DNA of 64,000 bases from Psammoneis japonica (GCA_008632985.1 QPGO01000132.1:1-64000); one strand, 5' to 3'. Shown: positions 2,556 to 57,719, counted from the stretch's first letter. Made by a program: numbers and translations. Notes: generated from the sequence alone by a model not told the origin.

Positions 2556-2800
2556 ATTAAAAAACATGTGGGCAAATGATGCAGTTTAATTTGTTGTTCT
2601 TAATGGTTGCACTTTAGAACGCCAACTTGTCAGAGGGAGAATGTGGTTTGCCATTTGACTGCTTGCCAAAAGAACTCGGCGGCAAGTTGAGACTGTGCGT
2701 TGATGGTTGGATGGTTCAGACACAGGCCAAAGGGAAGTGAGTTAGAAAATTTGTTGGGAAAGGATGCAGTTTACTTTGCAGTTCTTAACAGTTGCACTTT
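2435..2800 (+). repeat. Tandem duplication of ~181 bp (2435-2615 and 2620-2800) covering the 3' end of the CRAL-TRIO pseudogene
   Basis: cgccaacttgt...gttgcacttt occurs twice with high identity. Confidence 0.9.
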
Positions 2801-26893: not shown

Positions 26894-27589
26894 CAATGTT
26901 TCTAAAAATATCAGCGGAGGAAACAAAGGAAGACGAGGCTCCGGATACAAAGCACAGTTCCTTCTTACTGTAGACTAGAGAGTATATTTTACTTTGCATG
27001 TCGTTGGATGATTCCGATGATACATCATGCAAATAATACGATCGGCTCGATCGGGCGCCGGGCGCCTCGGGAGTTTTTAGAAAATTTAATACCCTATTCA
27101 ATGATGCATGCTGTAAAAAAATTTAGTATAACGATTTGTGGGGAGGAGGTCGCGCATCGCGACCAACCGCACGACTCATGCGCGAGCAAAAAGCATCATC
27201 TTGCCCACAAGGTCGCAATGGTCACCACTGTAGAGAAGCAGCATGATTTTGCCAAGTGGTGGATCATTGCTGTCTAACTGCCAAATGGGCAGAAGAAAGG
27301 AGCATACACACGCATGTGATCAGAGGAGCTTGGTTGGCAGTGAACAGGAGGCTCAGCGAGCAAGTGTGCTGTCCTGGAAATGTGCATGAAGCCGGTGCTC
27401 CCAGCTTGTGCGCTGCATGTCTGTTTCAACCTCAATTGACTGGTTGAGACCCCTTCATTGCACAGCCTAGCTTCATCAACCTTGCCAGTCACTGCTGCAT
27501 CTTTGACAACAAAATCAGGAGCTGTGAGAGAGAAAGTCTGCAAAAAGACGTCGAGTCTGTCCAGCGTTCACCAACCCCCCCCCCCCCCC

Positions 27590-33500: not shown

Positions 33501-34010
33501 CAGGAACAAGGAGGAGGCGGTGGAAGAATTGGGTGAGGAAATGGAGCCCGAAGAAACAAGGCCTGCCCCTCGGCACATGAAGCCAAAGAAACAACGAGTG
33601 TCTTGGGGAGACAAAGGAATCAATTGGTTCGACGATTTGTGCAAAGAGGTGACAAAAGACAGAGACTCCAAGGAGGGCAAGGAGTTTGAAAAGTGGCACG
33701 CGGAGATCAAGAAAAGCGAGTGCGAGAAGTCCGGAGAAGCAAAAAAGAAGAAGAAAAAAGCACCAACTGGTGACACGGAGAAGGTGAAGGCAATGAACAG
33801 CCCAATGGTGGAGAGCAGCAGGGACGACAATGGCAACGACGATGAGCAGGAGGAAGGGGCAAAAGGCAAAACGGACGACGGAGGAGACGAGTCCGATGGA
33901 GACGAGTCCGATGATGATTGTTGGCTCAGTTTGAGAGAGTTGCAGCAAGAAAATGTGTGCACAGTTGACACAGCACTCGGTCATTGCACTGCAGACGTAA
34001 CAAGGGATTG
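27590..34010. mobile_element. Putative Plavaka/CMC(EnSpm)-like DNA transposon relic with transposase and accessory ORFs; termini not identified
   Basis: Transposase-like ORF on the minus strand, a divergent intron-containing ORF (32718-34011), and a convergent ORF relic (27591-29035). All are TA-depleted. Confidence 0.6.
29030..32271 (-). pseudogene. Plavaka/CMC-like transposase, hypermutated
   Basis: N-terminal CPGC...H...C finger. Motifs ITGDAKSGD...CRFC, DMMHLFENG, KLQKL(H>Y)ETLHLP, NFDAG.GE. Only ~3 Tyr in 920 aa. A TGA at 29509 truncates a frame whose likely C-terminus continues toward ~29030. Confidence 0.65.
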
Positions 34011-34011
34011 A
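32718..34011 (+). pseudogene. Transposon-associated accessory ORF (basic/acidic, NLS-like PAKKRKK), hypermutated
   Basis: GT-AG intron 33083-33163 joins two frames (AMA-R-IVAEEE). Motifs DEALAL..EN.W and W..KGINWF..LCKEV..DR. No Tyr. Confidence 0.5.
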
Positions 34012-37000
34012 CTTGGCCGATGAAATGATCACGCACTGGCATGTGGCAACAAGGTGGAGGCAGAAATGGTGATGTGGAGACAGTGAAAAATGGCACACAT
34101 GATTCTCAATGAGTCATTGCAACATTGGTGTGCCAAACTTGCAACCAGAGGTTGGCCTTTCATCACATGACAACAATTTTTTGCAACATTTTGACAAATT
34201 GTCATCATGCAAATCTGCACATTTTTAACATTTCGTGCACTCTGATGACCGTGGCATGTCAAAATGTTCCTTTTCCATTGGCCTGAGCAAAGAGCTCCGT
34301 CTCATGGTGCTGTCGGGTTGGATGGGTTGGTCAACATGATGTGGATTGTGCACATGAAGAGCACAAGCCTTGTGAAATCTTGGGGCTGCTGCTGAGCCAT
34401 CTGGTTTGCTTTCCCGTGGCAAATTGCATCCCAGCCGTGACAAAGGCCTGCAAGTGTGATGCCAATGAAGACCGTGACTTGGATGTGACATTTTGCAAGA
34501 AATTTCAGGGGTTGAATCCTTGGCGCTTTTGTGAGAATCCCGACAAGCATCTGCCATGCACTCACACAGGTTTGAGTCATCTGCAACAGCTTGTTGACAG
34601 TGGGACATGTTGCCTGTCAAGCAGGATGCATCAAAATGCACCCTCTGTCAGCAAGAGTGGGAGTGGTTCTCCACATGCAAGCTTGCTCTGACATTTGATG
34701 ATGGGGACAAGGTTGGTCACAGCATTGTCAAATTCATCATCAAATCAATTCTTCAATGGCACCAGAAGGATCCTGAGAGACGCTGTTGGAATCAAGCATT
34801 GGCACCCGGCTGCAGCAACAAAGGTTGCTCTGACTGTGAAGCCTGCAAAGCATGGCACATGTTGCTGGAAATGGCGGGAAAATTCCGCCCCCAGCTCATT
34901 CATTAATTTTGTTACATTGGCGAGCAACATGTGACCCGTTGTGTCAATGAAGACAACTCAAATGTAGATGTGGGCTGAAGGGTTTGGCCCTCTGTCATCC
35001 AGACCTTCTGAAGGTTGTTGAAAAAGTCGAGTGTTGGATTGCCACAGGCTTCAACAGAAAAAGAGGCAATTTTGTGAGTGCACAAACTCCTCCACACTCA
35101 GAGGACATCATTTTTGGTTTGTCCAGGTGTGAAACAATGTTGTCGAAGTGTGTGTGCACAATGTGCAGTGCATGATCAAAGTGGCGCAAGGTTCCACCTG
35201 CAGTGGAGAGCTGGAGCCAACCTGCAGAACACACATGTGGGCTGAAAAACAATGCTGCAAGTGCACCACAGAAGGACTCAACAAAACTGTGATCAGCATC
35301 CTTCCCTTGCAAACACAAACACATTGCTGGCAAGCTCAGGTGCTGATTTTGGCACCACTGGAAATGTGCCAGCCAACAGCAGCAGTCGCGGTGCCAGCTG
35401 CAGCATGGATTAGATGCAACAAAGAAAATTCTTTTCAAGAGGATCTCTGTCCAGAGAATCCTGGTGCACACTTTTGTCAGAAGCCAGTTTGAAGACAGAA
35501 CAATGAGCTCATTTTCTCAACCAGGGACATTGGGCAGTTTGTTGGTTTGACTGGAGAAAAAAAAACTCAGCAATGTGGCCAATGGACCCACTCAGATGAA
35601 AACTTGCTTGGCCAGCAAAGATGGCAAGTGCACTTCTCACTTCTGCCCCTTTGCCTCCAGCAGCAGCTGTGCTTGGCCAACTGCTGCCCATGTTGTGCTG
35701 GCTTTCAGCATTGACTTTTGCAGTTGCTTTCCTGTGCCAGTGCATGTTCATTTTGTGTTGGAAACAAAGCCAGCAAAATCAGCTGTGCACACAGCCATCC
35801 AACAGCAACACAACAGCTCTCACTCAGCAAAACATGCACATTCTTGCCAAATTCATTGCACACAATGGGGGGGAGCACTGATGGGGTTTGTTCTGAGGAC
35901 GGAGGTTTGAGGCAGAGATGTGGTCATTGAAACACATCCATCCACTGAGTTGTTTGATGGCTGTGCCCCACAAAATTCACCTGCTCACTGCTTGTCAGTT
36001 GTTGATCCTCCAAGAATGCTCCAAGACCAAAATGACACCAGCCTGCCCACCAACCATGTCACTTCAATGAGTGAGCACTCATTTCCGCCCACATGCTTGC
36101 ACTTCTAAGTTTCTGAAAGAGTTGATGCTCAGTGCACAATGCATGGTGCTGCATGGGCCACACAGCTGGCCCCACCTTTTGCTTTCAATCACTGCATTGT
36201 CGCCTCATTCTTTCTGCTCCAAGCAGCAACATTTTGTGCAAAAGTTGTGTTTCACAAGCCAGGATCATCCACAGGTGTGGGCCCCAACAAGAAGAAATCC
36301 ATGACATGCCTCTCAAAAAGTTGGGTCAAAAGTTCTGAGAAATGCAGCTCTTGAACTGGTTCATGAAGACTCAAAGGATGAGTGCACTTTGCTGCTTTAA
36401 CAAGCTTTTCTAGATAAAATGATGATGCAGTGGATCTGACTTTGCCAAAAGGGGCAAAGAAATTCTGTTGCATGCACAAAACCTTTCCTCCAGCTCCCCA
36501 TGGTCAACCAGACAATCAAGCTCAAAATGCAACTGAAGAAGATGTGTGAAGCAGTCTGTTGAGTGCTTGTTGGGTTGAAGAAGTCAGATCTGCCAACAAC
36601 AACCACCAACTTCTGCAGTTGAGACAAACAAGCTGCAAGAAGCTTGGGAAGCATCTTGCTGATGAGCAGGTGGAGCAAGAACTTCTTGCTTGTGGTGCTG
36701 ACAAGGACAAGAAGGATCCAACAAATCACATTGTGAGCATCAACCAGAGCCACCCAGATCCAAAGCCCCATCACCAGGAATGGACTGGTGGCTCATCAAA
36801 GAAGAAAGTGGCCATTGTCAGTTTCCCAGACTGGAGATGTTTTCCACATTTTGAAATGCTGGACATTGGTTGGGTGGAGCTGAAGTTGCTGCAGAAGCAT
36901 GGCATGCCAATTGTGCCTCACAGATTTCATTGATGGCAGGATGTGCATCACAGATTGGATTGCTTTTGGGCAGTGGAACGTCAGTCTGTTCGCTCAAGTG

Positions 37001-38462
37001 AAGATCAATGTGTGCCAATGCCAACACCATCTTCTGGATCTGCGCTGCATCTTGAACTCCCAAGTGATGAGCAAGGTTGCTGCTCTGTCATCTCCTGTGC
37101 CAACTTGCCCAAAGGCTGTCCTCAGAAACTCAAAAGAAGCTCATCAGCCAAGTCCATTCTCAGATTTTCCATCACAGAGATGCTTGCTCGCCTTGCTCTT
37201 GGAGCCATCAATGCATGTTCTTGGTTGGGGCACACAGTTTTCACTTGACTCAAATTCAACAGGATGTGTTTTCCCCCTCACATTGCGTGCATGCAAGGAT
37301 TGTGTGGATGTGGGCAGAAACAACATTGATGCTCATGTTGCAACACCCAGGCTTAAAAGTTTGGGAGTGCACATGGCAGACCAAGTGACCAACTTGATGG
37401 GAAATGCTTGGTGTTGTGTCAGGCTGTGCCAACATTCCTCAATCCCAGCACGCAGCTGCATCTCTAGTTCTTCATGTTTGCATGGCATCCTTTTGATCAT
37501 GTGCCATGTTGATGTGATGAATGAGTTCAAAAAGTCTGGTGTGGTGGCAACAAAGCCACTGAAAACCTCAGCAAGAAAGACTTGAGTGCCAGCATCAAAG
37601 ATGCAAGGTTCCAAGATTTGTTGCCAGAGATGCTTCTTGGCAAGTGGCTGGACATCATCATCAAGAAAGATTTTGAAGTGCCCAAATCCTTGGCATTTTG
37701 GTCAAGTTGCCCCAGGTGGTTCAAATCTTTGAGCCACCACATTGTCAACCAGCAGACAGAGCTGTTGTTGGAAATAAAAAGCATGCTGCAGACAGTGTTG
37801 AAAGAGAGGGTGGAAGACTGGCAACGGCTGACACTGTCTTTGGAGGGCAAGGGTTCTGTGCAGGAAAACAAAAAGAGCCAGCTGCAGGAGCAAGACTTGT
37901 GCAGAGTCAAGACCAAGCTTGCAATTTAAAGATGCCAGAGTTGTCAAACAGGGTGGGAAGGCACCATCCATCTGAAGCATCTGTTGTCAACCCGCAGTTG
38001 CTCCTGGAGCCTGCACCTCAAAGATCTCCACCATCTGACTCAATCATGCCAGAAGCACTGGTGCACCACAGGGCTTGTGCAAAGTTTGTGCTGAGAACAA
38101 AAAGGCAACAAAGACAAACCAGTGCTGCATGCTCTGCAGGACTCAAAGAGAAACAGCTGTGCTGCTGGTGGGAGGACACCCAGGGACTGGAAGAGTGTGT
38201 GTCTGCAAAGCACATTGTGGAGAAATCAAACCTCAAATGTGTCTTGGAACTTGTTGAAAAAGTCACCACCAGCAATGAAAAGAAGATGCTGAGAATGTTG
38301 GTGGTGGGAACAATGGAGCTGGAGGCATGTGCGCCACAGCAGTGCCACTCAGAAATGCTGCATGACCCAAGAAATGTGTCTCCACAAAGAAGCAAGGCAA
38401 AGATCTAGAAGTTGAAAGGCAGAGAAAAAAAAACAGCAAATGCCAAGAGAGCCACGCACCAG

Positions 38463-38911
38463 GTGCAACACACAGCTGCTGACAAGAGTCAATGCATCAC
38501 GGTGACGTGTTGCAGCCTTTAAATGTCACAAAGGGCGTGACAAAAACAACCTTTTGTCTGCATGCATGCTGCACCATGAATTCACAATGGAGTGGTGCAT
38601 CGCAACCACTGGGCAGGAGGCCAGGGGTTCGAAACCCTGAGTGGGAGTTGTCTGCAGCAACGTTGATCACTGTCGAGCGCGTAAAACTCTGTGCAGTTCT
38701 GTGTGTTCCTTCGCACGTGCCCACACTGTTCCGCCAAAACCGTGCAGTGTCAGCACACGTTAGCAAAGAGCCGCATGGACGCGTGATGCATGGGGAGGAG
38801 TGCAACACACAGCTGCCAATGAGAGCCAATGTGTCACGGCGACGTGTTGCAGCCTTTAAATGTCACAAAGGGCGTGACAAAAATGACCTTTTGTCTGCAT
38901 GCACACTGCAC
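38463..38911 (+). repeat. 112-bp direct repeat (38463-38574 and 38800-38911)
   Basis: gtgcaacacacagctgc...gacgtgttgcagcctttaaatgtcacaaagggcgtgacaaaaa...ctgcac occurs twice without gaps. Confidence 0.9.
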
Positions 38912-40908
38912 AGGCAACTGCACAAGAAAGTGCTCAAGACTGCCTTGCTCAGAAAAAAATGCGCTTGGCCTGGAAACAAATCTGCCAGCTCATTTTTTCC
39001 ATGACTCACAACTCCACATTTGGCATTGTCATGATTTCATCATGCAAGAGTTGTTTTGTGATTGCAAGTGTCCTGTGGGTGCAGCAGCATGAGTTGTGGT
39101 TTCTCATGGTGTTGACATGTCGCACAAATTTTGTTGATTTTTGACCTTTTCACAAAAAGCACTTTGAGCCAGCCTGCTCAAATTGACCATGTGCATCTTG
39201 CAATTTGGGAGGAAGAAAGAGCTCAGACACCAATGCCAAGGTCTGCACACTCACATGCGTGCAGACCTCAACATCAAATTTCATGTGTGAGAAATTTGTC
39301 AGCTTCAGAGCACTGCATTTAGCTCCACAAGCCACACCCGCATGCTGGGAGCTTTCTTTTGAGAGCCTCTGCAGACTGCAGCAGCAACTGGCAGGTTGTC
39401 AAATGGCGTGGGTTGGCACACAACACAATGATGTTGCTGAGATGCAGATGGTCATTTTCTGAGCAAATGGCCTGTGTGTGCTGTCAAGTTCACAGCACAC
39501 ATGAGAAGTTGCTGACAATGAAGGGTTGCTTTCCCCCTGTGTGCACTGTGAACATGCACGCAAATCTCCCTCATGTGTGCTGCAGCATGATGTCCACAAT
39601 GATTGTCATTTGAGCGATTGCACCTCATGTGTGGTGCAAGTCTCACACCACACACAAGGGGGGAGATGTCGCCAAGTTTTGCCGCACATGAAGGCAAATT
39701 TGTCACATGCTCAATGGGGCAATTTCTAGACTCATCATGCCTTGCACCTTGTCATTTTAATCAAGTTAGTCAAACACAGCTTTAAACCACCATGATGCAG
39801 TGCACATGGAGAGGACAGATCTTGTGGCTCAAATGTCGCCAGTCGTGAGCTTCTTGCCAGTGCCGCTGGTGCTTGGTGCATTGCAAGCAGCACGACAGTG
39901 TGCTCTCTTGAGCCGCTGTCTGGCCAAAGCTGCACAAAGTTGGTTTGCTTCTCTCTGTGTGGCTTTTTGACTTTGCTTGTGCTGTCCTCAGTGCCACACA
40001 AGCAAGCCTTTGTTTTCTCATGCTGCTTGTCATTTCTGGCTGCTCTTTTCATCTTTTCTTTTTGTTGTTGCTCTGGCTGCTTGCTGCTCCAACTTGTGCA
40101 GGGCTGCTTTCTGCTGCCACTGCTTTTGACAATCTTGGCATTTTTGTGGAGAAGTGCTGCTGTGCTGGGAGCTCTGTGCTGAAGCTGCAACGATGATTTT
40201 CCAGCTCTGCTGAGAGGCAATGGAGTGCACGCTTGTGCTCTCATTTGACAGAGGCAGTGCGCGGCAGCAGAGAGACATCTTCAGAGCAAGCTCCAATGCT
40301 TCCACATGCTTGAAGATTTTGAAAAAAGCACCGAGGCAGTCCTTTGTGATGCAGCTCTTGACAAAAACTGGGTTGCACCCCAAAGTGGTGCTGAAAACAT
40401 TTTGTGAGGTGCTGCTTGGTCGTGGACAACAGCAACCACATGGGGGGCTTCTTGGCTGGCCAGCTGGGGTGGCAACAAGTTCTTGCTGGGTTGTGCTGCT
40501 GCAGAGCATCTCAACTGCTTGCTTTTGGCACCCAAAACAGCCTCACAATTCTCCCTTGTGGCACCTTGTTCATCCCTTCCGCCTCTGTTTCTTCAAGCTG
40601 CAGCACACAGGGTCGGCTTTTTTTTCGACTCCTGGCAGCTTCTTGCTTCTGCACAAACTCCTTGTGTCTGCACCCGACACTTTGCTTCACAAATTGTTCC
40701 TTGTCCTTGAGCGCCAAAGCTGTCTTCGGTGGTGCTTGTGAAAAATCATCAGCTCACCCCACATAAAATCCGGGTTGCTTCTAGCTGGCTCCACTCGAGT
40801 CGAATCAATCAAAAGTTACCAAATGGCCAGCAATTTGCGTGCGAAGTTCGCGCGATTGTCGCGCAAAGGCTCACGGTGGGGTGAAGGCTTTTGGCTTTTG
40901 CGGCCACC

Positions 40909-41637
40909 ATGACAACGACAGCGATGACTCCAGAGCAACTCAGAGCCGTGACACTGCTAGATGAAGACGAGGAGCCGGTCGCATCGAAAAGTGTGATTGG
41001 AGAAGTGAACGAGGAGCGCCGTCGCGTCTGGTTGTCGCGACTAAATCAAGATGAGCAAGAGCAGTTGAAGCCGGCGGATAAACTCGTTGCCGTGTCCTGT
41101 GTGGGCGGTCGCGGACCCCTTGAACATGCTGTAAGAGTACGAGACGGCGTAGGTACTCCTCTTTTGCTCGAGTGCAAGGTATCCTACGAAGAGTTACCTC
41201 CTTCCATGCTAGTCGAGTACACGTTTGATAATGCTACGTGGCGTCTCTCTTTCGTCTGTCTCGACTATTTGTTGAGTTTTCGCAAGTCCAAATTTCAAGA
41301 TTGGGAAAAGCGAATAACTAACCCTACTTGTAAGGCTGAACTGAAGCGTATGCTGGCGATTGGGGTCGTGACGCGCGTCTACGACCACTACATGTTTCCA
41401 TCCACTGAAGCAGAAATGCAGGACTATCAAGTGACAGATGAAAATGGCAAGACCGTCGTTTTACCAAGGCCTGTGGCGGCCTTGCGCATTTGGTCAACTG
41501 AGAAACAAGCATATGAACCTGTAGATGCGACACTGGACGGTGCTCCAGATGATACCGAGGGGTACTGGAAACAGCTCATTGCGAAACTCAAGACTGAATA
41601 TCCTGACGAAGTAGAGGAGCTCTTGAGTGCGACATAG
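40909..41637 (+). CDS. Hypothetical protein (242 aa), intact gene island
   Basis: Uninterrupted ORF with natural amino-acid composition and normal Tyr and TA content. Good ATG context (gccaccATG). Confidence 0.75.
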   Translation: MTTTAMTPEQLRAVTLLDEDEEPVASKSVIGEVNEERRRVWLSRLNQDEQEQLKPADKLVAVSCVGGRGPLEHAVRVRDGVGTPLLLECKVSYEELPPSMLVEYTFDNATWRLSFVCLDYLLSFRKSKFQDWEKRITNPTCKAELKRMLAIGVVTRVYDHYMFPSTEAEMQDYQVTDENGKTVVLPRPVAALRIWSTEKQAYEPVDATLDGAPDDTEGYWKQLIAKLKTEYPDEVEELLSAT

Positions 41638-42308
41638 TTCAGTGTATCACACTAGAAGTAGCTGGGACGTATTGGAGCAGTCAATGCCTGGCGGGGGTAT
41701 TGACATTGACTGGGATGGCAAGAGAATGAGACACTCTTGAAATTAGTTGAGTAAGACAAGAACTCATGGAATGAACGATACCATTAATTTATTATCATCA
41801 CTTTTGATTACATCGTTCTCCATCATACTTGTGACTCGTGACGCTGTTTATCGATGAGGCCGTTAGACTGGGGTGAGCCTTCGTTAAAACGTCTCTACGC
41901 TTGATCTCCCTGGCATGGAACCAGCCATCTCAGATCTCAGTGCTAATGGCACAAATGGGTGTTCTTCTGGGAATTGCCTTGAGCATGACAAACGCAAGTC
42001 CACAAATCTCTCCACTCCTTGGGGCACGCTGAATTAACAGGATTTGCCAAATCTGCAAAAAGCACTGTGAATCTACCAACTGTTGCCTGCTGCAGAACAT
42101 GGATCCATGCTGCAGAAGAGCCATTGTGGCATCTGTCTTTTGGCCTTGCTTGGGCAACTGATTCATTCTTTGAGAGCTGCTTTTGCTTCCTTTGCTCACT
42201 CTGCCACATCTTCTGATGCTCATTGCTGGAACCCCCCGGAGGTCAAGATCTTCACTTCACATGCAGGTTGAAACAAGCCCGCAGACCAAAGGTGGATGCC
42301 AGCAGTTC

Positions 42309-42334
42309 CTCTCTCTCTCTCTCTCTCTCTCTCT
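42309..42334. repeat. (CT)n microsatellite
   Basis: About 13 CT units. Confidence 0.9.
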
Positions 42335-45300
42335 TGGGGCTCTAGAGATTCTTGCCTCTTGATGCCTCATCAGCAAGGGACAAGCAAGGGCGGGTCTTGA
42401 CAGTCTCAAAGCAACTGGCAGAGCTGGATGGGGAACTGGCAGAGCAAGAGAGGGGGTTCATTGTGTGGGCAGTGTTGGTCAATTGATCAAAGAGGGACTC
42501 CTGGAGAGTTGTGCGGCTCTGGAAAACCATTCAAATACAAAAACGAAGGCGTGAACATTGAGGTTGATGAAGGATTCATCTCATCAGAACACCTGGCATT
42601 TGATGTGGAATCCAGACATCAAGAAAGTGAGTGGGGTCACAGTCAAGGGCAATGAATTTGATCAGACCTTGTTTCTGAAATTTGTTGGGAAATGGAAGAT
42701 GGGGAGGCAAAGTGCTTCGTGAAATGCGCCAATGAGGAGACAGGCCACGCCTTAGTTTGCCAATCACTCAGGGACACCATCAATGTGTTCAGCGGCAAAG
42801 ATGCACTTGAAAAACATTTTGGATTGACCACATTTGGTTTGTGTCCAGACCTTGTCCTTGTGATCTGCACCAGACTGGGGAGCACTCCAATTGACAAAGT
42901 GAAGAATCCAAGCAAAGATGACTGCAAGGTTTTCAGCAGCAAAATTGCAAAACAGGTGCATGACCATCTTGCTCAAGGTCATGGAGAGAATTGAGCATGC
43001 TGCACCATTCATGTTGGTGATGATGCATGAGGAGCTTGCACTTGCAAAACTCAATCAGGAGAATGAAAAGCATTCTCAAGTCACGCAAGAGAGTGCTGCA
43101 CACATTGCCAAAGTGTTCAACCACCGGGAAAATTGTTCAAGAGGAAAAAAAAAGGGGAAACAAAGCCTCCGGCCAGTCCACCCAGAAAATTGCCACAAGA
43201 CAATTTGAGTTCTGAAAATTTGACCATTCTTCTCCTGGTGATTGATGCTGGTGACCAGGTGAACAACAAAGATGAGGATGAAGCCTTTGAAGATGGAGAC
43301 AAGGCAGCACAGGCCTGATGTTGTGTGCTCAAAGATTTTTGGATGGCCACATGTTGTGAAGGCATTGATCCTTGCTGCAGTTTGTGGGCACAGAATTGCT
43401 GAAAAATGTGAAACCAAGTGACAAGGGGACAGCAGGTGCCTTGAGTGGAGCAGCCACCTTGCCGGCAGAAGACCAAGTCATGGAGTCATGGAAAAACAGG
43501 ACATGCCTTTTGCTTGCCAAAACACATTGAGGTGGAAGAAATGCAGCAAAGAGATCCCACACCAACAGTTCCCTGGAGGAAAGTCAAAAAGCTTTTTCCT
43601 GTTTGAGGCCTCCTGTGTGGCAAAGATGATGAAAAAAGTCTTCCCACACATGGCATTTTGTTGTGATGCAAGATCTGAGTGCACAATGATTTGGCACAAT
43701 TGCCTGCTTGCATGACCCCGCATTTTCGTGCTGCAAAGCAGGCTCATGATTTTCCCACCAGCACTTTTGTTGCACATCTCTGTTTTTGCCACTTGTCAGT
43801 GCATGGGGCATTTGTTTCACTTTTGTTTGGATTTTTGAAATGCAGTTCTTGCACTGTGCTTGCTTGAAAAAAAGAACCAGCACTTTTCACAAATGACAAC
43901 AATTTTCTCATTCTCACACTCCCTTGCAATTTCTCAAACATTGTTGCCACTCAAACAGCCAGCAGTGAAGTGCTTGAAACTGCGCCCATGCCAATGATTT
44001 GGTGAAGACAGCTCAGTCACCACAATGGGCTGTGCTTGGATTTTGGCATCCTCGCCCCCCATGGAAGCCCTTCTCCACATGGTTGCAATGGAGTTGTGCC
44101 CCAATGTGTTTGGTTTGGTGGCACAATTTCACAGCAAGTTGGCCAATTTGATGGCCCCCAAATCTTTTGCAAAATCCTGTGGGCCAATCAACTGGATGCC
44201 CTGCCCACACAAAAACTCAGCAGTCATGGGTTCTCACAGCCCAAATCACATCCCACATGGCTGCACTCAAAGCCATGACAAAGGCCAGAAATGACACCAA
44301 AAGAGCACTGAAAAGGAGTCACACAGATCTCTGTTCATTTTGAAAAGCAGGGGGTGTTTTGGTTTGACTGCTGGGCAGCACCACTTCCCAAAAGACTTGC
44401 GCTGGCAGCTCTTGCAGAGCTGTTGGTCAGTGCAATGCTGGCACTGGTGGCAGCTCAGGCCACCCCTCTTGTTCATCAGATTGGTTGGTGCCACCCTTTC
44501 TTTTCTTTCTGCCTTGCCCCCCTGCTGCAGGCTTGGTCACTTGCACCAAAACCAAAAAGTTGAGAATTGGACATTTTCATGACATTCCGCTGTTTGTGCT
44601 GCTTTTCTCATTGTGAGCAAAAGGCTTGCAAGTGAGCCAAGAGCATGTGACTCACCAAGCTCACTCTTGGGAAGACCAAGCATCCCTGCTCAACATTTCT
44701 GTTTGCCCACACATTGTCCATGGCACTTCTTGTTGATCTGCAACACCTTGATGCCCATGCAATGCCCACTCTCTGCCGCCCTCCTGGGAGATTCTTTTTC
44801 ACATTAGAGCTGCTCCTTGCACGTGCAAAGAAAATGTTTTGCATTCCTCTCAGTTGAGGAAAAAGTGGTGGCTGGCAATCATTGTTGATGCTGTGGAGTC
44901 TGCTTGAAAAGCAAAGCTGTGCTTTGAACACACAAAATCTGCAGCTGGCAGCTGCAGCACTGCCACAAAAATGCTGTCTTTTCTTGTCTCAAAATGCTGA
45001 CACCTCCTGCTCATCAAGTCATGCACTGCAAAAAAAAACTGGAAGTGGCCACCAGCAGAGTGCAGAGAAAGCAGCACCATTTTGCTGAAGATGTGCTCTG
45101 CTTCCCCCCCTGCAACGACAAATTTTTGAAAAAAGATGCAGACACTCCCCAGCACACAAGTGAGCTAAAGAGCTGCGTGCACTGTGTGTGTCCACAAGAA
45201 AGTGTGCTGCTGTTGTCAAACTCTTTGATGAGCTGTGCACACAGGTGGGGCACCTTTCATGAAGCTTTGTGGAGATGTCAAATGCTGATTTTCCTGAGAG

Positions 45301-46851
45301 AGTCTGCCTGCAACTTTCAAGAGGTCTTTGTTTAAAATGACACATGGCTTTTGACAGAGTCAAAGCCCACAAGTGTGCACCAAGTGGGTCATGTCACCAA
45401 TCACCTGCTTTTGTGCTAAAGGCTGGCTTGGGTGGCATCACCACCAAAGGCCTGCTGCAATGGCCACCTCCAAATTGGACAAAATCTAGCTCCTTGCTTG
45501 TTTTCAAAAAAATCTTCTCGACCGCTTCAACTTGAGACTGAACTGCAATCCACAGAAACAGCCAATCAGCCTTTGCAGCTGGCATCCTCAACATCATCCG
45601 GCCGCCAGAATGACGAACAGAAATCAAGCAGGACAACAAAGGCAATCTTCACCAACACACTGTCAGATTTGAGATTAACACTCTGCAGCAGAGGTCAAAG
45701 GAACTTGATCACAAATGTTTGTGAGTCAAACTTGTGCTCAGTGGAAACAGTGTGCTGAAAGCACCAAACTGTTACGCTGCAATCGATGTCCTTGGTGCAC
45801 AGTGCTGCATCGATGTTTGCAAAGTTAGAGACACTTGGGATCCGACAAACTAAAAAGCCAGAGAGCCAATCAACCCCCTCTGCACCTGTCCCCCAGTGCT
45901 CTGGAGAGAATCCTCTGTGGGGCTTGGACGCGTGCCGGCAAGGAAATCTGATGAAGGAGCTCCTCAAAATGACATCCCGTTGCACTGTTCAGCTCTCTCT
46001 ACTTTGAGTCTTTGCAGGCATTGCAGCAATTCTCTGGGCTGACCTGGTTCCACAAAAGATGCGCGAAACACTGTGAGTTGACAACCTGGAAAGCAGATCC
46101 AAAGTTTGGCTTGCCGTTTGCATTGCCAGGGGTTCGGAACATGGTTCGAACACAATCAGGGCTTTTTGGATCCCCGTGTCCTTTTGTGTCCACAACACTC
46201 AGCATCGCCTGTTCCTTGGACATGGCATCAACCGTGGCCTTCTTGTCCAACTTCCAGAGTTCTGGACTCTTGGCACACTCGAATGCCTCCCGCATCCGAC
46301 CACCAGTGTGTGATGGAAAATGTCCTCAAAAACTTCATCGGGAGAACAGCTGGAAGCAGATTTGTCATTGGCATCAGCATCGGCTTCATCAAGACATTCC
46401 ATTCCATCATCAGATTTTGTTGTTGCTGAAGCCGCTGCTGCTTTGCTGTCACCAGCTTGTTTTTTGCGGACTGGAATGTCCAAAGTGCACTCCAGCACTG
46501 AGCGCAGGTCCGGCTTTTCCCAGCCACTTAGAATGACCAGAGCAGATGATCTCATAGATTCTCCCTGAGGTGCATCATGTCCACTGCTTGTTGCAAGGCA
46601 ATGGTGTGGTTGACTCACATCTTCGTCACATTCGTGAGGACCATCAAGGAAAAAGAGGACTTCCTTGGCCAAAACTTTGATCTCTGCCTCATCAGGTGTG
46701 ACCCTCATGTGCTTTTGCAAAGCATCCTCCAACACATCTCCCACCATCCAGCATTTTTTCAACTTTCAATTGAAGTGAATCGTAGCCCACTCATTCTCTG
46801 TGTTGCCACTGACCTTCTTTCACATGAAAAACACACTCATGGGTTCTTGAA

Positions 46852-47127
46852 TGACAGAAATTGAAGGCAAATGGCAAGAATTCAAACAATGGCTCCTTGC
46901 TGCTGTCTAAACAGCAGATGAGTCTCCGCTCAGAGACCGTTGCAGGAGCCGAAAGACGTGCAAGTCGGTGCAATCGGGCTGCTGTCATCATTCTTGTGAG
47001 CCTTGTGGCTCGAAAGCAAACTACATCGCGTGCGAACGCGCAGAACTGAAGCACACAAAACTGTGTGCGGCAAACTAAACAGTGCGCGACATGTTGCGCG
47101 CACCCAAATCCTGTTCAAATCCTGTCA
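46852..47127 (-). repeat. 3' LTR
   Basis: Ungapped match to 53660-53935. Adjacent to a PPT-like tggggag on the minus strand. Confidence 0.96.
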
Positions 47128-47142
47128 CTCCCCAGTTTGCTT

Positions 47143-50100
47143 GAGGAGCCACAGAAACAGATTCAACTTCGGATGGAATGAAGTTCCAGAACATGAGGGG
47201 GCGGAGAAGGTCCCAGACTTGGGAGCAACCCCAATGCTTGCTGAGAATGTCAGCAGGGTTGTGGGAGCCTTCGATGAAGTGGAGCTCAAGGCAACCAGAG
47301 GCAATTGCCTCACGCACATGGTGGAATGACAGTGCAGTGTGTCGCTTGTGTAACTTGGAGTGCGGGATGGTGGCACTGTCTACAACCGACTTGTTGTCAC
47401 CGAACATGTAACTGATGTCACGGATCTGGACGCCAAGGCAGCGCAGGGTGATGCGCAGGTCGACAATCTGCTCGACACAAGTCCTTGCGGCAACAAATTC
47501 AGACCCGTGAGTCGCAGTCTCCACGGTGGCTTGCTTCTTAGAGAACCAATCAGCCGGGAATTTGTTGAGGAAGTGGAGCATTCCCATGACAGAGCGTCTG
47601 GTGAGCATGCAATGGTGCAAGTTTGCATCGACGTAGTGGGTGGCAGTGACGAACTTGCCAAGGGGCGGTGGAGCGTCCTTCGGGATCATCTCTTCTGCTT
47701 TGCCGCACACGGAATGCATCCATTCATGGGCCGGAGCAGGGAGATCCGAGTGGTCGGGCTCTTCCGTGCGAACGTGGAGAGCGCCGTGTTGCATCTTGGA
47801 GAGGTGCCCACAGACGCGTTTGGCACGATCCAAGTGGCCTTGACGGGGCGCAGCTTGGAAGCTAGAGAGTGACATGACGGCCGTGGTGATGTCAATTCGA
47901 CCAAGGGACACTGCCCATTGGAGTGAACCAACAAGAGACTGGAACTTGTGAATGCCATCGGGCCCCAGCAATTCGGAAGTGTCCAGTTCGGAGTGGTCAC
48001 CCTTCTCCAGAGGTGACAGGGCGTTGGTGGCAGGTTTCTCCCCAAACAGTCGGGTGCAGCTGTCGACCATGCGCTCGATGTACTTGCGCGGAGACAGGCA
48101 CAAGGTGCCGTCGGGATCCCGGGAAAAGTCGCAGCCCAGATGGAACTCAATCGGTCCCGCACCCTTGAGCTTGAACTTGTGCTTTTCCATGAGAGTGTCG
48201 ACAAAAGATTGAGGGTCCTTCATGGCAATGGCGAGGTCATCCACACAAACGGCAATGCATTCGCAGTGGTTGCCGTTCCTGTGCATCCAAATGTCGGGTT
48301 CGGCATGGCAGGGGAAGAAACCTTCAGCTCGCAGGCAGTCGGCGAAGCGCTCATGCCAGCGGAGGCCAGAGCTGCGCAGTCCATGCAGGGCCTTGTGGAT
48401 GACAAGGATGTGGCCTTCGAGTTTGCCAAATTCAGGTCCGGCTGCAATGTAGAGCTTCTCCTTGGTGGTGGCTTCAAGGTGGGCATTGCCAATGTCGGTG
48501 GCCCATGTCTCCAACTCATTGAGTTCAGCCAGGAAAATCATCAGCCGAAGGCCACGGAGGGAGACTGCTCCGGAGCAGACACTGTCGATGGGTGCGTCCG
48601 TGAGGTGCCCATCGGCTGCGAGACGTGCCTTGTGGCGACCGTCGTGTTTCACGTCGCACACCAGGTGCACTCGGATCTTCTTGTGTCCCGCAGGAGGAGT
48701 GGAAGACTCGGAGGGCCCGCAGTCATGGAAGACTTCGCATTCCTCGAGTTGGTCCATCTCGAGATTAGTTGCGTCTCCCCATTTGCGGTTGCCGTTGCGT
48801 TCGTCTGGTGACATGGCGTGTTTGCAGTTCCGGGGAACTTCGCATCCGTGCTTGCAGCGAGGTGCAGTGCGGAAGGAGCGAAGCTTGGCTTGGTTGGCCA
48901 TGCAGAATGGCTTCTTCTGGCGCCTCGCGATGGTGCGGAACCACTTCCAGCCATCAGTGTCGAGAAGTCCGTTCTCTCGTGCATGGATGGCGCAGGTGAC
49001 AGGGTCGTCCTTGGCGATGATGGCAAGAGGCTCGGACGTGATCTCCCCACTTTCCCATTCAAGCACAATGTTGTAGCTTGAGCCTTTCCAGGTTGGGTCA
49101 TGGGGCTTCAGAGGTCCTTCGTGTGACACAATGCATCGAAATTTCCAAACAGCAGTGTCTTTGTCTTCTTGCTCAATGTGATTCATGATGTCGTTGTAGG
49201 CCAGGACTTCCTCACATTCGTCGTTGTTGACAGAGCAGACGAACTTAGTGAGCTCGGGATTGCCATTCACTTTCCATTCGTGGTCTTCAACGGCCTTGAC
49301 GATGCAAGCTCTGTGGCGTTGTCCATCCTCTTGTGGCTGCATGAGGAAGGTGCATCCGATGGTGTCTTGCGGATCAAAAACTGGCATCTTGGGTGTCCTG
49401 ATCTCCCCATCAGGTGAATCGACGGGGTTGTCATCATGGCGAGATTTGATGATGGGTTCAGGTGGCTCCCCATCAGGAGGATCAAGACGCAGGTTTCGAG
49501 CGGCAGGATCAGTGGCAGCGGATTGTACGTTGGACCGGCAGAGGATCTTCTGAGTCTCGTCAGAGAGGATCTTGAAGGTCATCTGGTGGCCAACGTGCTC
49601 AGCAATGCCAACAAAGCGTCCACGCAACTCACGGGATTCGGACGGCCAATCGGAGTCATCGAGGTGGAAGCACACAGGTTCCCACCAGTGAAAGCGAAGC
49701 AATGGGCTGATGTCCGGGGTGGAGCCAGTGAGAGTCTCGAGGGGCGTGTGCCAGTGGAGACTTGGGGACGCTGCATGGTTGAGCACGAAGCACACGTGCA
49801 TGAGCGCCAGCAGCCATGTGTGGGCAGGCGAACCGAAACGATCCATGACAGTGTTTGCCACGCGCTTCACGGTCTGGTGTTGACGTTCGGCAAAGTTTTG
49901 GTGTTGCTGGTGAGGCTCACTTTGCCAGCTGGAGACAAAGAGGGCTCGTAGGATCCCGAGCACCTTGTTGCTGATCTCAACTTGAGCACGGTCGCCAATG
50001 AGTTTGGATGGAGCACCACGCTCACGGATCTGATCCTCGAGTGTGTTGACAAACTCTTTGTCCGTTTTGGTGCCACAGACGTCAGTGACGGTAGACTCGG

Positions 50101-52744
50101 TGCCAACAAACAGTTGGGCGCTGGTGCAACCAGAGTCGACGGCCGGGGTGTCGGCACAAACGGTGTCAGTGGCGACAGGCTCGTTGTGGCGGTGCACATT
50201 AAGGGCGGGGTTGGGCGATTTGTGGGCCTTCCCAAGGTGTGCACCGGCGGGCATGCGGGCGCACTGCGTGGTGCAGTCGAAAGTACGACAAACCGCATCG
50301 GCAGGTTGGAAGCCAAAGTGAGGCCAAAGAGACTCGAAGGGGGGGTCCTTGGGCTGCACAGTGCGCTCCGGGGGCGGAACGTCGTCGTCCTTGGGGTCAA
50401 TCGCGTGTAGATGACACTCGTGGAACACGTCGTCATTCGGAATGAGATGGTCATCGAGGGCGGACGCGTGATCGGCAGACAAGGAGGCGGACATGATGGT
50501 CTTGTTGACGACGACACGATGACGGCAGTTGCCGCATTCGTCAAACAGGTTGGCAGTGGGATCGTCCTGCAGGTCAGAGATCGCATCGCACCACTGGTCG
50601 TCGTCAGTGACAGAGTGATCAAGGACGGAAGGATCCCATGTGTCATCACCGGTGAGGATGACATGGGGCAGGGTGTCCCATTCGGCGTCAGTGCAAGGTC
50701 GCATGGCAACATGAGGCAGGCCGCCCTTGATGTCAATTGGGATGACACAGCCATCAGGGGTGGCAATGCGTTGCAAGCCGTTGGGCACCTTGACAGAGCG
50801 ATCGTTGACATCCTGTTTGTGCCATTCGAGCTGGCCGCAGGAATGGATGGTCTCGCCCTTTCCCGTGCATGCGTGCTGATGGAGGATGGCGATGACGGGG
50901 CCATGCTGTGTCTCAATGACGGCACCAGTGGTGACAACAGGGATGTCCACCAATTGATGGTCGTCAATGCCCTGAACGTCGACTTGGCGAGAGGTGCATG
51001 CAACAACGCGAACGTCGTCGCCAGCAATGCCGCTGTTGGCCCCACGATCGACCAGAGCACCAGTGCGTGTGGAGCGATGAGCAGAGGCAGAGCAAATGAC
51101 ATTGTGGTCATCAACGCGGTGGCAAGTGCGGCCGTTAAGTTCTGTGTCATCGGCAGGAGCGGGCGAGGTAGAGGGAGCGGCGGATGGCCCTGTTCGACTG
51201 GCGTTGGGGGCTTGGTTAGGAGACAACAGGCGTTGCAGATCACCGGGTGGCAGTGGCTTGCGTTTGGTGAGGTGCGCCAGGATGGGATCATCTGAAGTGG
51301 CACCCACATTTGGAGTGGGGTCACCAGAGTCAGCAGGAGTCGTGTTGGACAAGTTGACATCACCGTCACTCCCAAGGTGTTGGTCGTGAAGGTTGGCCGT
51401 AACGGACTCATGGCAGTTGCTGGCTCGCGGGTTGCGGGGAGGCAGATGAGAATGCTCAAGGATGATCGCCTTGGAGGAATGGGGCAACAAATCCCAAATC
51501 CGTTGGTGATCGGGAGGGAGACGTTTCCATTGGTCACCGGTGAGGCTGGGACCGCGGGTGCAGGCAGCATTGGCCTGAAGGACGTCAATGTCGCTGTCGA
51601 TGTCACAGAACACATCATCGGACGGTTCCTCGGAGTGGACGTCGTGTGCGTGTGTGGCACATCAGGGAGCTCGAGGTGTCGTCTTGGGTTGAAATGCACT
51701 GTTGCAATGAGCCGCTGCAGAGAGGATCAAGCCACAATGTTGATCGCATGTGAGGCTCTTGCCACTCTGCGTGCGATGCTGATCAGCTTGGTTCTTGACA
51801 GCACGGAGTTCCTCGACAGGATGCATGGCATTCTCGAGCATGACGCGCTTCTGTTCTTCAGAGAAGTGGTCACTGGCCGGGATGAGTGCCTCGCACTTGC
51901 GCAACTGATCTTGCCAATGAAGAATGAACCCGTGGGTCGGACCTTTCCAAGTGCCATCACCAAGACGTGCGGTGGCAAGGTGCGTGAGCAAGGTGGAGGA
52001 CTCGACAGATGCGCGGGTGGAGGCAAGCGCATGCTCGGACAAGGCGCGGCAGACGGTCTGGGCGTCAGAAGACCCCACATTTTTGTGAATGAGAGCCTTG
52101 CCCTTGTCGGTGAGAAGGATGCGTTCGAAGACGGCGAACATGTGCTTTTGCTGTTCAGCAAAGAGCAGTTTGTCTTCGGGGCTGGTCGGTTTGTACGACA
52201 AGTCTAGGGTGCACTTGACGTCTTGGGCACGGGCTTGTGCCACAAGTGAGGTGTGCCAAGTGTGCCACTGCTTGTCGGATTTGAGGGCCGTGAAAGCGGT
52301 GGGGTCACGCTTGATGCCTTGCTTGAAGTCTCGCACTGGGTCGCGTGCCTTGGTCGGGTTGGTGACATGCAGAGGTGCGAGGGGCGAGCTGCCGACGGAC
52401 ACAGAAGACATGCAGTCGGGGCTGAGGCGGCAGGCAAGGAACTCCTCATGCATGAACAATGAGGAGTCATTGGCAACATCGAGACCTTTGTGTGCTTTGA
52501 CAATGTACAGACTAACTAGAGCTGCTAACATGTTCTTACAACCGCGGGGCAAAGGGATCACATTGGTGCCGTTGTCGCACTCAAGCGAGTCGATTTGGGA
52601 CGGCATGAACGTGAACAGTTCTTGGCACGAGTCCGTGCCGTCATGGGTCAAAGCCAAACAAAGAGGGCTTCCAGCACCTTGGGCAAGCACGGTTCCAACA
52701 ACGTGCTCGAAACCATCGGTTTGTTGCTGACAAGTGAGAACCAT
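47143..52744 (-). pseudogene. Copia gag-pol polyprotein (protease, integrase, RT, RNase H)
   Basis: ALVDRGAN (PR); VATDTV, QQHQNFAER (IN); HKARL, DIGNA, KAL.GLRSSG, .VDDL (RT); VDAN, GSEF, GDNKSV, NPADILSK (RH). The gag and pol ORFs share one frame, separated by a single TGA at 51662-51664. Confidence 0.93.
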
Positions 52745-53659
52745 GACAGACAAAAGCGGTGTCAGGACAAGCGATTCTTGTTGGGATGCGAAGGTAGACT
52801 TGAAACTTGGGTGAGAAAGGACTTGACTTGAAACAAACTTGACTTGAAATCTTGAACTGCCTTAAAATCAGAAGTCGCCGGGCTGTGCCATCCCATTCGT
52901 TGTCAAGTGCCAAACTTCCCATCCGGTCCGTAGAGTTGTGCCGGCACGTCCGAACCCGCAGCTGGCGGTGCTTTGGGTTGCTTACGAGCGGAGCAGCGGG
53001 TTGCAAACCCCTGCAGGTGAGCTGACCAGAGGTGGACAAGACCCCCGAACCATTCTCATTTTATGTCGGTTGGATTTCCCGATCAGGCTGGCCAGTTGAT
53101 GCAGGCATCAGGCGCTGTGGACGAACGAACAAACGCGGGAAAACACCCTCGCCCCAACGCAGGCTGCAATCACGGCTGCTTGCTCTCACAGTCGTCCTCG
53201 TGGACCTGGTGGAACTGCAGAGCACCAGCAGTCCAGGGCAGATCAGGTGCAATGGACTCGGCGTGCTTGTAGAGTGGCAGCAAAGCCGCAGTCCAAAGAG
53301 TGGGTTCAAGTCCTTGGCCGTGGAGACATGCACAGATCCTTGAACATGTGGGGTTCTTGACCGTTGACCGTTGAATGGGCACATCAAGGGATGAGGATCA
53401 AGGGTGGACTTGGACATGACCGTTGAATGCATGTCTTCAGCGACAAAAAGCAGCACAATCAATCCAGACATGCAGCGGCAAGGAGACTTGACGGTGACGT
53501 TAACTTCCTGCCGATGCCCTGGTGTTGAATGCGCGCAGACTTGCCGATGTGCGTAGAACACATGCGGAGGTCCACGCAGAATTGAAGTGGCGTCGTCGGC
53601 AAATCAACGACGACGACGGCGGTTGCTCAATGGGTTGACAATGAGCAAGACTGTTGATC

Positions 53660-53935
53660 TGACAGAAATTGAAGGCAAATGGCAAGAATTCAAACAATGA
53701 CTCCTTGCTGCTGTCTAAATGGCAGATGAGTCTCCGCTCAGAGACCGTCACAGGAGCCGAAAGACGTGTGAGTCGGCACAATCGGGCTGCTGTTGTCATT
53801 CTTGTGAGCCTTGTGGCTCGAAAGCAAACTGCATCGCGCGCGAACGCGCGGAACCAAAGCACACAAAACTGTGCGCGGCAAACTGAACAGCGCGCGACAT
53901 GTCGCACGCACCCAAATCCTGTTCAAATCCTGTCA
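53660..53935 (-). repeat. 5' LTR
   Basis: Ungapped match to 46852-47127. Confidence 0.96.
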
Positions 53936-55319
53936 TTGAATGTCTTTCATCTTGCAAGCGAAGCAGACAGGCTTGGGATTTTTGTCGCACAGAGTGCAGC
54001 AGAGTGCCACAAGGAACAGCAATGTTTTTTTCCCTGCACCAGGTGAGCCAACTGCAATCTGTCTTTGCTTTCGATGACTCTTGGTCAGTTCCTTGAGTGC
54101 ACCACACATTTCCCTCCGAATGTGAATGGCCCCATTGGGGAAAAAGTGTTCCTTGATTCCCTCCGGATGAGGGGCAAGGGGTGCAAGAAATGCTCCGATG
54201 TTGATGCACCCTCCCTCCAGTGGGCCTGTGGTGGCACACAAGCTGGCGTCAGCACAGTCAAGCGCCGCTTTTCCATGCTGGATTGATGACAACGACGTCA
54301 TTGCCAACGCTGGTCATGGCACCTTGGTCGTCCTCTGGGGGGCATCTTCGGAAGTGAGACTGTCAAAGAAAGTTGCATGGAATTTGTGCCAAAACAGTCT
54401 GTCAATCAGTGCAGTTGGGCATTTGGGACCTCTGGACAGATCCTGCATGTTTTCTTGTGCATGCAAATTGCACTGGAAAACCCCCCAAACGCACTGGCGA
54501 TCAGACCGCCTTCGATGATCTCACTTCCAAAGACGCCCCCCACCAACTCCCTCTAGCTGGCAGAGAGCAGGGCCCCAGAGCAGTGGAGAGCAGAGTTTGA
54601 GACAGTGTGGGGGAAGTCTCCAGTCAGCGCGCTGCTGGCTGAAGAAAATTGTGCAGTAGAATTTGCACTGAAAGTTAGGAGTTTTGGTGAACGCAGGACA
54701 GACTCGACGTCTTTTGCGCAGGCGGGCGGGCAGGGCCTAAAAATTGCACTGCAATTACAAAACCCCCCAAACGCACTGATGGTCAGACTTTCTTCAGCCA
54801 GCAGCTGGCTGGAGGAGTCGTCCCCCGCACTCGGTATGTTTGATTCATTCAGGACGAGTGCTCTGTATGATGCTCGACAATGAGCAAAGTCTGGAGTCAG
54901 GCAGCGTGTCGACTGGCAAGAGGTTGTGTCGGAAGTCTCCTTTGTTTCCTGTCATGAGAATGAGATCAAAAATTTTCCAAAAGATTGTTCTCTCAACGTC
55001 TTCGATTGCGAACCCGAGATTCCATCATGTGCACCCTGCGATAATTGGCCACCACAGGAAGACAATGCGGACAGAAGAAAGAAAAGAAAGGAATAGTCAG
55101 GCCACAGCTTGTCATGGGATGACGCGAGCGTTTTACAAAGTCTCACTGATAAAATAAGAGGAAAGCGAAGCAAAGATCGCGGTGGAGAAGCAAACATCGC
55201 AGACACGAATTGTGGGTTCGCAAAATTTGCACGAGTCAACAATCGCATAAAATCTACATCAGCAATGACACGACATACGATCCACTGAACATCCATTGTC
55301 TACAGCTGTCCCCTTGACC

Positions 55320-57433: not shown

Positions 57434-57719
57434 GGTTGTAGTTTTCGTTGTATGCTTCGTTGTTCGTTTCGTACTTCTTTTTTCTTGCTGTTGTCGGGCT
57501 CTTTTTATTTCTGGAGCGAGGCGCGAACGAGGTGGAGCGAGGAGCGAGGCGGAGGGGTCTTCCAGTAAGTTCGGCTCTCCGTACCCCGTCGTACATTTTC
57601 TACAGAGAACGTCATCACTTAGGAAAGACAATACTGTATGTTGTACATACTGCACTCTACAGTACATACACAGAACAATATGAGAGTCATCTTTCTCCGC
57701 TCCTTATTGCGTGCGTGCT

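Follow-up and report, generated by a model that had tools for sequence, protein, structure and literature searches.

We analysed a 64,000-nucleotide stretch of the Psammoneis japonica assembly (GCA_008632985.1 QPGO01000132.1:1-64000; "the window" hereafter denotes this whole stretch). Within it, a complete Ty1/copia retrotransposon has a gag-pol frame that is open almost from end to end and nearly free of Tyr, and the TpA dinucleotides of the window's repeated DNA have largely been converted to TpG or CpA. Taken as a whole, the process behind this pattern is likely to be a hypermutation of TpA to TpG/CpA that acts on DNA, after integration, on repeated or silenced sequences of a diatom-like genome.

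A Copia element with an open frame and few Tyr residues

The element is a complete Ty1/copia long terminal repeat (LTR) retrotransposon, with two LTRs, a 5-bp target-site duplication (TSD), an RVT_2 reverse transcriptase and a single gag-pol frame:

53660..53935, minus strand: Copia 5' LTR, 276 nt, with TG...CA ends; direct repeat of 46852-47127 at 92% identity
46852..47127, minus strand: Copia 3' LTR; starts TGACAG and ends CTGTCA, as does the 5' LTR
46847..46851, no strand: left copy of the TSD TTGAA; the flank reads CTTGAA, then the LTR
53936..53940, no strand: right copy of the TSD TTGAA; the LTR, then TTGAAT
47078..52861, minus strand: gag-pol frame of 1928 codons, with 1 in-frame stop and 8 Tyr
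47075..51613, minus strand: pol open reading frame (ORF) of 1512 aa, with 6 Tyr (0.4%), 52 Cys and 90 His
48059..48694, minus strand: reverse transcriptase, Pfam RVT_2, ORF residues 974-1185 (E = 2.3e-22, 80.2 bits, cut-off 31.6)
48233..48265, minus strand: YxDD catalytic box, codons TGC GAA TGC ... TGT GTG GAT GAC
51662..51664, minus strand: the single gag-pol stop, TGA; Arg occupies the same column in 10 of 17 homologues

Homologues of gag-pol, 1845-1991 aa in length, align co-linearly with this frame, and RVT_2 was the sole Pfam match of the 1512-aa ORF. Pfam did not find an integrase model in the Copia protein of the window, nor in the intact homologues P0002 and P0006, and the order of integrase before reverse transcriptase in the window's element is taken only from its co-linearity with these two proteins.

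An earlier note on this DNA had described a systematic replacement of Tyr by Cys or His, and of Val by Ala, in invariant Copia motifs, with about six Tyr left in 1512 aa. Exactly six were counted, and all seven motifs that it quoted are present, each aligning to the canonical Tyr or Val form of the homologues:

48233-48265, minus strand: CECIAVCVDDL, the YxDD box (YEYIAVYVDDL in homologues, including P0006)
48470-48496, minus strand: DIGNAHLEA
48365-48394, minus strand: KALHGLRSSG
48608-48634, minus strand: HKARLAADG
48824-48853, minus strand: KHGCEVPRNC
47495-47515, minus strand: ATHGSEF
47213-47233, minus strand: WGCSQVW

The Tyr positions in these motifs are encoded by TGC, TGT, CAC or CAT, and the Val position by GCA. 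The database contained many gag-pol homologues, mostly of ~1850-1990 aa and with ~65% identity to the ORF. Tyr content among the best 120 of them had a median of 3.8% and a minimum of 2.86%; at 3.8%, the binomial probability of six or fewer Tyr in 1512 residues is 2.5e-18. The ORF was then aligned with 18 homologues, and the 636 columns in which at least 15 of the 18 agreed were treated as conserved. The window differs at 85 of these columns. Where Tyr is conserved (34 columns), it has Cys at 15, His at 12, Phe at 2 and Tyr at only 5.

Restoring TpA undoes 39 of the 85 substitutions, restoring CpG undoes 17, and neither undoes the remaining 29. The change is thus specific to a dinucleotide and runs from TA to TG or CA, as had been proposed. 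Eight of the TpA-type substitutions span a codon boundary (Ile to Val, Thr to Ala, Met to Val and Ser to Gly, each after T), which indicates that the mutational process ignores the reading frame. Replacement of Val by Ala is real, with both cases being GTA to GCA, but it affects 2 of 37 conserved Val columns and is not systematic. It is also correct that CpG decay is unable to produce the TAY codon changes; the earlier account was nevertheless incomplete, because CpG decay acts here too, on the 17 substitutions just mentioned and probably on the sole stop. Arg to His, Cys, Gln or Trp at 13 of 54 conserved Arg columns represents ordinary CpG decay, and the TGA at 51662-51664 most likely arose in the same way, from CGA. 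No stop codon can arise by A->G or T->C changes, and this accounts for the open frame: the element was disabled by missense change, with one stop in the 1928 codons of gag-pol.

The observed/expected ratio of TpA in the ORF is 0.11. As a control, we took all 24 metagenomic loci encoding Copia relatives (38-60% identity), and every one of them had a ratio of 0.65-0.81 over the matched region. Five of the TpA that survive in the element lie within 32 nt of the gag region (52506-52537; GTAC, CTAA, CTAG, CTAA and TTAC), compared with about one per 170 nt in the rest of it. This cluster could reflect local protection or chance.

LTR differences and the timing of the changes

Both LTRs of a retroelement are identical at insertion. 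Those of the Copia element now differ at 21 positions, corresponding to 15 events, all of which are transitions and 14 of which fall at TA- or CG-derived sites. By class, there are 6 CA/TG doublets, 2 TA/TG, 5 CG/TG and 2 CG/CA differences and 1 other transition, and CpG decay accounts for 7 of the 15 events. One TpA and 16 CpG survive in both LTRs. Arithmetic on these counts gives an estimated per-LTR loss of ~0.92 for TpA, ~0.18 for CpG and 0.0025 elsewhere, corresponding to a rate ratio of about 1000 : 80 : 1, which is rough because its background is a single LTR difference. A second repeat pair in the window (38463-38574 and 38800-38911) contains 5 CA/TG doublets among 7 events. The LTR differences and this second pair therefore place the changes in DNA after integration; they took place in chromosomal DNA, independently in each LTR.

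This timing bears on the possibility that an ADAR- or ADAT-like enzyme edited A to I at UA in RNA, and that reverse transcription then yielded copies that were already mutated when they inserted. Such editing would agree with the 5' U preference of RNA adenosine deaminases, an argument put forward in the Discussion of the Bigelowiella preprint considered below. However, the LTRs of one insertion differ at converted sites, which reverse transcription is unable to bring about, and the two strands are hit about equally: Tyr became Cys in 15 columns and His in 12, and TG and CA stand at 1.72 and 1.70, respectively, in the 12-kb depleted block described below. Moreover, conversion extends to the relic of a DNA transposon, to one copy of a host gene and to non-coding blocks, so reverse transcription is not required. 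We regard RNA editing as very unlikely.

Other copies and relatives of the element

Four runs of one sample (X1-X4) contain the Copia element. X1 contigs mapped on 44001-64000 had summed word depths of 59,000-150,000 over the element, about a thousand times the 49-70 of the single-copy flanks; the plain reading is that the Copia family is high-copy, although a summed depth is not a copy number. Compared with the window, the X1 copies carry transitions at 457 places and transversions at 66. In a listing of 40 of these places, most copies have CG at many sites where the window has TG or CA, several places are CA<->TG doublets, and some window sites (e.g., 48444, 48576 and 53406) are still TA in part of the copies. 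The outcome at a given site is thus independent from copy to copy.

These data also address whether the Copia family might be TpA- and Tyr-free by native composition or selection, with active members sharing CVDD, a prospect that the earlier note had itself raised. A frame that stays open over 1928 codons with one stop is what such a family would show, but the open frame follows equally from the mutation type. What we found was that the LTRs diverged at converted sites after insertion, that other copies carry the alternative outcome (CA vs TG) or TA, that relatives are normal in both TpA and Tyr, and that non-coding and unrelated repeats are depleted too. Native composition is hardly credible on these grounds.

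Other converted Copia copies are already present in public protein sets, possibly from the same organism. An exhaustive profile search yielded 150 representatives, of which three had less than 1.5% Tyr (P0198, P0209 and P0270) and a fourth, P0160, had 1.9%. All four are fragments of Copia proteins, 280-381 aa long, with a Tyr content of 0-1.9% and with Cys or His where Tyr is conserved. In these columns, P0198 retains no Tyr and shows Cys in 8, His in 4 and Phe in 1, its YxDD box reading CKCIAHHVDD; for P0209 the counts are 5 for His, 3 for Cys and 2 for Arg.

We also considered whether modified bases in repeats were misread as TG or CA in a long-read assembly. Modified bases are a known cause of systematic long-read errors, and no record states which platform produced the assembly or runs X1-X4. 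Against such an artefact, the TpA-free left flank of the element also appears in X1 contigs, which come from a different assembler and have a word depth of ~57-69: over 44001-46877, at single-copy depth, they differ from the window by one letter in 2877. Tyr-free Copia fragments in public protein sets, and the same mutation type seen with Illumina reads in Bigelowiella natans, argue in the same direction, and a sequencing or base-calling error has very little probability. The left flank (44001-46851) is presumably an old relic and is among the most depleted DNA of the window (TpA 0.02-0.12, CpG 0.08-0.44). The right flank (53936 to ~54800) is itself repeated, with summed depths of 4397 and 711 compared with ~57.

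TpA-depleted blocks across the window

The earlier note had tied the effect to the Copia element, which proved too narrow, as the depletion covers every repeat block of the window. Sliding analysis showed the window to be bimodal, with ~53% of it in sharply bounded TpA-depleted blocks. The depleted blocks total 33.9 kb with 149 TpA and have observed/expected ratios of 0.05-0.13 for TpA, 0.07-0.9 for CpG and 1.3-1.9 for TpG/CpA. The gene blocks total 28.4 kb with 1064 TpA and have ratios of 0.5-0.6 for TpA and ~1.0 for CpG; they contain genes for arginase, isocitrate dehydrogenase, an ABC transporter, a Deltex/RING protein, a CRAL/TRIO protein and a GT25 enzyme. The main blocks and the other sequences that bear on the process are as follows:

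42101..54600, no strand: TpA-depleted block with the Copia element and both flanks; observed/expected TpA 0.06-0.09 and TG/CA 1.3-1.7
27401..40800, no strand: second large block, depleted in TpA and CpG; 44 TpA vs 806 expected in 28601-40800
~40750..41900, plus strand: island of normal composition, 1.15 kb, with an ORF of ~243 aa, between the two depleted blocks
29512..32271, minus strand: Plavaka-type (KDZ) DNA transposase relic of 920 codons with no stop; Tyr 3, Cys 43, His 36
1640..2564, plus strand: converted CRAL/TRIO gene copy, embedded in repeats; 68% identity to the normal copy at 6088-6999 (plus strand)

CpG depletion is uneven within the block that holds the Copia element (observed/expected 0.28 in the left flank, 0.8-0.9 in the element). 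The island between the two large blocks keeps normal TpA and CpG, and at either edge TpA rises from 0 to 2-7 per 100 nt within ~200 nt.

Conversion is not confined to retroelements. The Plavaka-type relic is as poor in Tyr as the Copia ORF is, compared with 2.5-3.2% Tyr in its five homologues, one of which (P0121) carries Pfam PF18759; the relic frame itself has no Pfam match. In the CRAL/TRIO pair, the 27 aligned TpA of the normal copy correspond in the converted copy to TG in 13 cases, CA in 10, other dinucleotides in 4 and TA in none, whereas control dinucleotides are retained in 38-57% of cases. Conversion is limited to the repeat-embedded paralogue, which is followed by a 185-nt tandem duplication (2431-2800); its partner is normal.

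The CRAL/TRIO pair also distinguishes the process from repeat-induced point mutation (RIP) of the classical fungal type and from CpG decay as the sole cause. Both find some support in the abundance of transitions in the repeats and in the depletion of CpG in the same blocks, and ascomycete RIP shares further traits with what we see: DNA-level, post-integration, dinucleotide-specific transitions ruin repeats and leave sharply bounded blocks of distorted composition. However, RIP makes TpA from CpA/TpG, lowers G+C and introduces stops, while in the window TpA is destroyed in favour of TpG/CpA, frames stay open and G+C rises (57% in the Copia element vs 48% around it). RIP also differs in that one of the two CRAL/TRIO paralogues was spared here, which is a weak test, the pair being old (68% identity). 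CpG decay, in turn, would have to explain changed TAY codons and a CRAL/TRIO pair of which one copy alone was converted. We give RIP, or CpG decay by itself, a negligible probability; CpG decay is retained as a second process and excluded as the only one.

Several further features of the landscape were recorded. Pfam identified CRAL_TRIO, Deltex/RING and Glyco_transf_25 in three host-gene frames. Among the 13 further frames scanned, it gave nothing above the cut-off for seven from depleted blocks other than Copia and two from gene blocks, and the ~243-aa ORF of the island had no match above the cut-off either. A tRNA scan of the window found none. An isolated depleted block of 500 nt (57901-58400; 2 TpA vs 28 expected) lies in a gene-rich stretch and could be part of a transposon or a solo LTR. 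At 55320-56627 (plus strand) is a Cys-rich, secreted-looking protein without a Pfam match, whose Pro/Thr-rich tail is encoded by five 63-nt tandem repeats (56212-56484). All arginase matches with an organism name are diatoms, at 57-69% identity (Fragilaria, Thalassiosira, Skeletonema, Seminavis, Nitzschia, Odontella, Attheya, Cyclotella and others). The window is thus diatom-like, in agreement with the affiliation given before, and has no close relative among these named matches.

Flanking context and candidate chemistry

Survival of TpA, calculated for depleted versus gene blocks, depends on the neighbouring base. It is lowest for TAT (0.03) and TAC (0.07) and higher for TAG (0.18) and TAA (0.22), and NTA survival mirrors TAN survival. 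Among four-base contexts, survival is 0 for ATAT and 0.005 for ATAC and reaches 0.32-0.42 for CTAG, CTAA and TTAA (TTAA 0.42), with half-sites intermediate. Independent attack on each strand at 5'-TAY fits these values better than recognition of a four-base palindrome. The heavy loss of Tyr is partly explained by this, since Tyr codons are TAY, the best context. A strict RTAY target with a strand-specific outcome was also tried and rejected; it holds as a moderate preference alone.

Under the hypermutation reading, the Copia element would have inserted intact and then lost about nine tenths of its TpA. Each loss would be an A:T to G:C transition, giving TpG or CpA according to the strand of the palindromic step that was hit. 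TAY codons would become TGY (Cys) or CAY (His), GTA would become GCA, and a TpA at a codon boundary would alter the next residue. Catalytic residues such as the Tyr of YVDD would thereby be destroyed while the frame stays open. A second process, from methylated CpG to TpG/CpA, would run in the same blocks about tenfold more slowly and most likely made the sole stop.

For the chemistry, the chances are about evenly balanced that it is an enzymatic deamination of adenine to inosine at 5'-TA, with 5'-TAY as the best substrate. The tRNA adenosine deaminases TadA and ADAT2 target an A that follows U/T. U-A-C is the natural site of TadA, which in bacteria also acts on mRNA, where it turns TAC (Tyr) into TGC (Cys). 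The process in the window would resemble them in that the target A follows U/T, and they are the candidate enzymes proposed in the Bigelowiella preprint. The targeting would depend on the state of chromatin or methylation, not on pairing between repeats, and would serve genome defence.

Thymine might be the target instead. A dioxygenase of the TET/JBP type would oxidise T at TpA in silenced DNA to 5-hydroxymethyl- or 5-formyluracil, which mispairs with G and leads to T->C, seen as A->G on the opposite strand. Such modified bases occur at T before A as 5-hydroxymethyluracil in dinoflagellates and as base J in trypanosomes, 5-formyluracil is mutagenic towards T->C, and Plavaka-type elements, of which the window has a relic, carry TET/JBP genes in fungi. 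Thymine oxidation also fits the symmetric end state, including the mirrored NTA and TAN survival, as well as adenine deamination does. On the other hand, 5-hydroxymethyluracil itself pairs normally with A, and no dioxygenase gene was seen in the window, where the ORFs next to the Plavaka relic gave no Pfam match. The authors of the Bigelowiella preprint favour adenine deamination, likewise by inference. We prefer adenine deamination too and consider thymine oxidation unlikely, though a serious alternative.

Several observations weigh against TpA hypermutation as set out here. The process is read from end states, with no new mutation observed, and such end states cannot separate a change of adenine from a change of thymine on the opposite strand. 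Its thousand-fold rate is rough, for the reason given above. In our own reading of the LTR alignment, only one of the six LTR doublets lies in RTAY context, and some of the doublets may descend from CpG rather than TpA. The context preference is moderate: measured against intact relatives, survival in the element is 0.04 for RTAY, 0.03 for RTAR, 0.12 for YTAY and 0.16 for YTAR, and whether a site became TG or CA in the CRAL/TRIO pair is independent of the flanks. The two CRAL/TRIO copies are merely 68% identical, so their ancestral states are uncertain. Finally, X1-X4 derive from one sample, which is possibly the source of the assembly itself.

Comparison with known systems

Our search of full-text literature turned up no account of diatom transposons losing TpA, and the sole relevant precedent was the 2026 preprint of Mettrop et al. 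on the chlorarachniophyte Bigelowiella natans (bioRxiv 10.64898/2026.01.13.699255). In its mutation-accumulation lines, 231 of 302 nuclear mutations fell in an integrated nucleocytoplasmic large DNA virus (NCLDV) and virophage, and 230 of these 231 changed A to G or T to C, in each case within a TpA. Mutations arose there at ~6e-7 per site per generation, ~1000x background, and in some lines only, and an ADAT2-like adenine deaminase is the enzyme that the authors propose. Over the long term, the footprint reported for B. natans is modest: TpA rho stands at 0.45 in the NCLDV region, and the genome has 124 depleted clusters. The main text of the preprint uses none of the terms CpG, context and diatom.

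The window looks like a second and far more saturated case of the same type of TpA hypermutation, aimed at transposons. In both, TpA changes to TpG/CpA on both strands, and TpG and CpA rise as TpA falls. The excess over background is about 1000-fold in B. natans; for the window, the LTR pair suggests about as much, as a rough estimate from a single background difference. The process is confined to foreign DNA in B. natans; in the window, repeat blocks are hit and host genes spared, save the repeat-embedded gene copy. The differences are also clear. The host is a diatom-like stramenopile rather than a rhizarian chlorarachniophyte, and the targets are an LTR retrotransposon, a DNA transposase relic, a host-gene copy and old repeats rather than viruses. 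Compared with 0.45 in B. natans, the observed/expected TpA of 0.05-0.13 over about half of the window is near saturation. CpG decay accompanies TpA loss in the window; CpG is not mentioned in the main text of the preprint. Mutations were watched in lines of B. natans, whereas the process in the window is known from its end states. Finally, TpA accounts for 3.7% of the dinucleotides of the window's gene blocks, compared with 6.0% reported for B. natans, and the genes of the window have long uninterrupted ORFs; together with the diatom arginase matches, this led us to reject B. natans as the source of the window.

Methylated-CpG decay has the same products and affects the same blocks as TpA loss, but it has a different substrate and, by the LTR pair, is about tenfold slower. 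CpG methylation of diatom LTR elements has been described (Maumus et al. 2009, PMC2806351), which fits such a second process in the window.

Hyperediting of retroelements by ADAR and APOBEC enzymes differs in acting on RNA or cDNA, on one strand and before integration, while the changes in the window are on both strands, came after integration and include DNA transposons. Knisbacher and Levanon reportedly described such hyperediting in 2016 as clustered transitions of a single type, ascribed to deaminases. Hyperediting before integration would leave changes on one strand, identical LTRs and an effect on retroelements alone; none of these was found, and this candidate was rejected.

Implications for diatom transposons

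In a wider reading, TpA hypermutation would be an old, chromatin-guided defence shared by distant lineages of the stramenopiles, alveolates and Rhizaria (SAR) and the main killer of transposons in this diatom, outpacing CpG decay. We put this forward tentatively, as rather less probable than not. If true, it would erase TpA from perhaps half of the local sequence, leave "ghost" frames behind and falsify LTR dating, and its enzyme would be a natural A-to-G editor of DNA specific for TpA in double-stranded DNA.

For the annotation of such genomes, gene callers will report long, Tyr-free and Cys/His-rich "proteins" from dead elements, and family models detect converted copies less well (RVT_2 scored 80 bits here vs 104 in intact homologues). 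Dating by LTR divergence is inflated about twentyfold in the Copia element, in which 21 positions differ and 1 is background. An LTR identity of 92% would imply an old insertion, and LTR dating in this genome needs TA- and CG-derived sites to be masked.

That the footprint is so extreme and covers ordinary transposons argues that the process serves genome defence in general and is no peculiarity of two viral insertions. The genome offers a place to seek the responsible enzyme, and a natural TpA-specific adenine editor of DNA would be of interest to the base-editing field.

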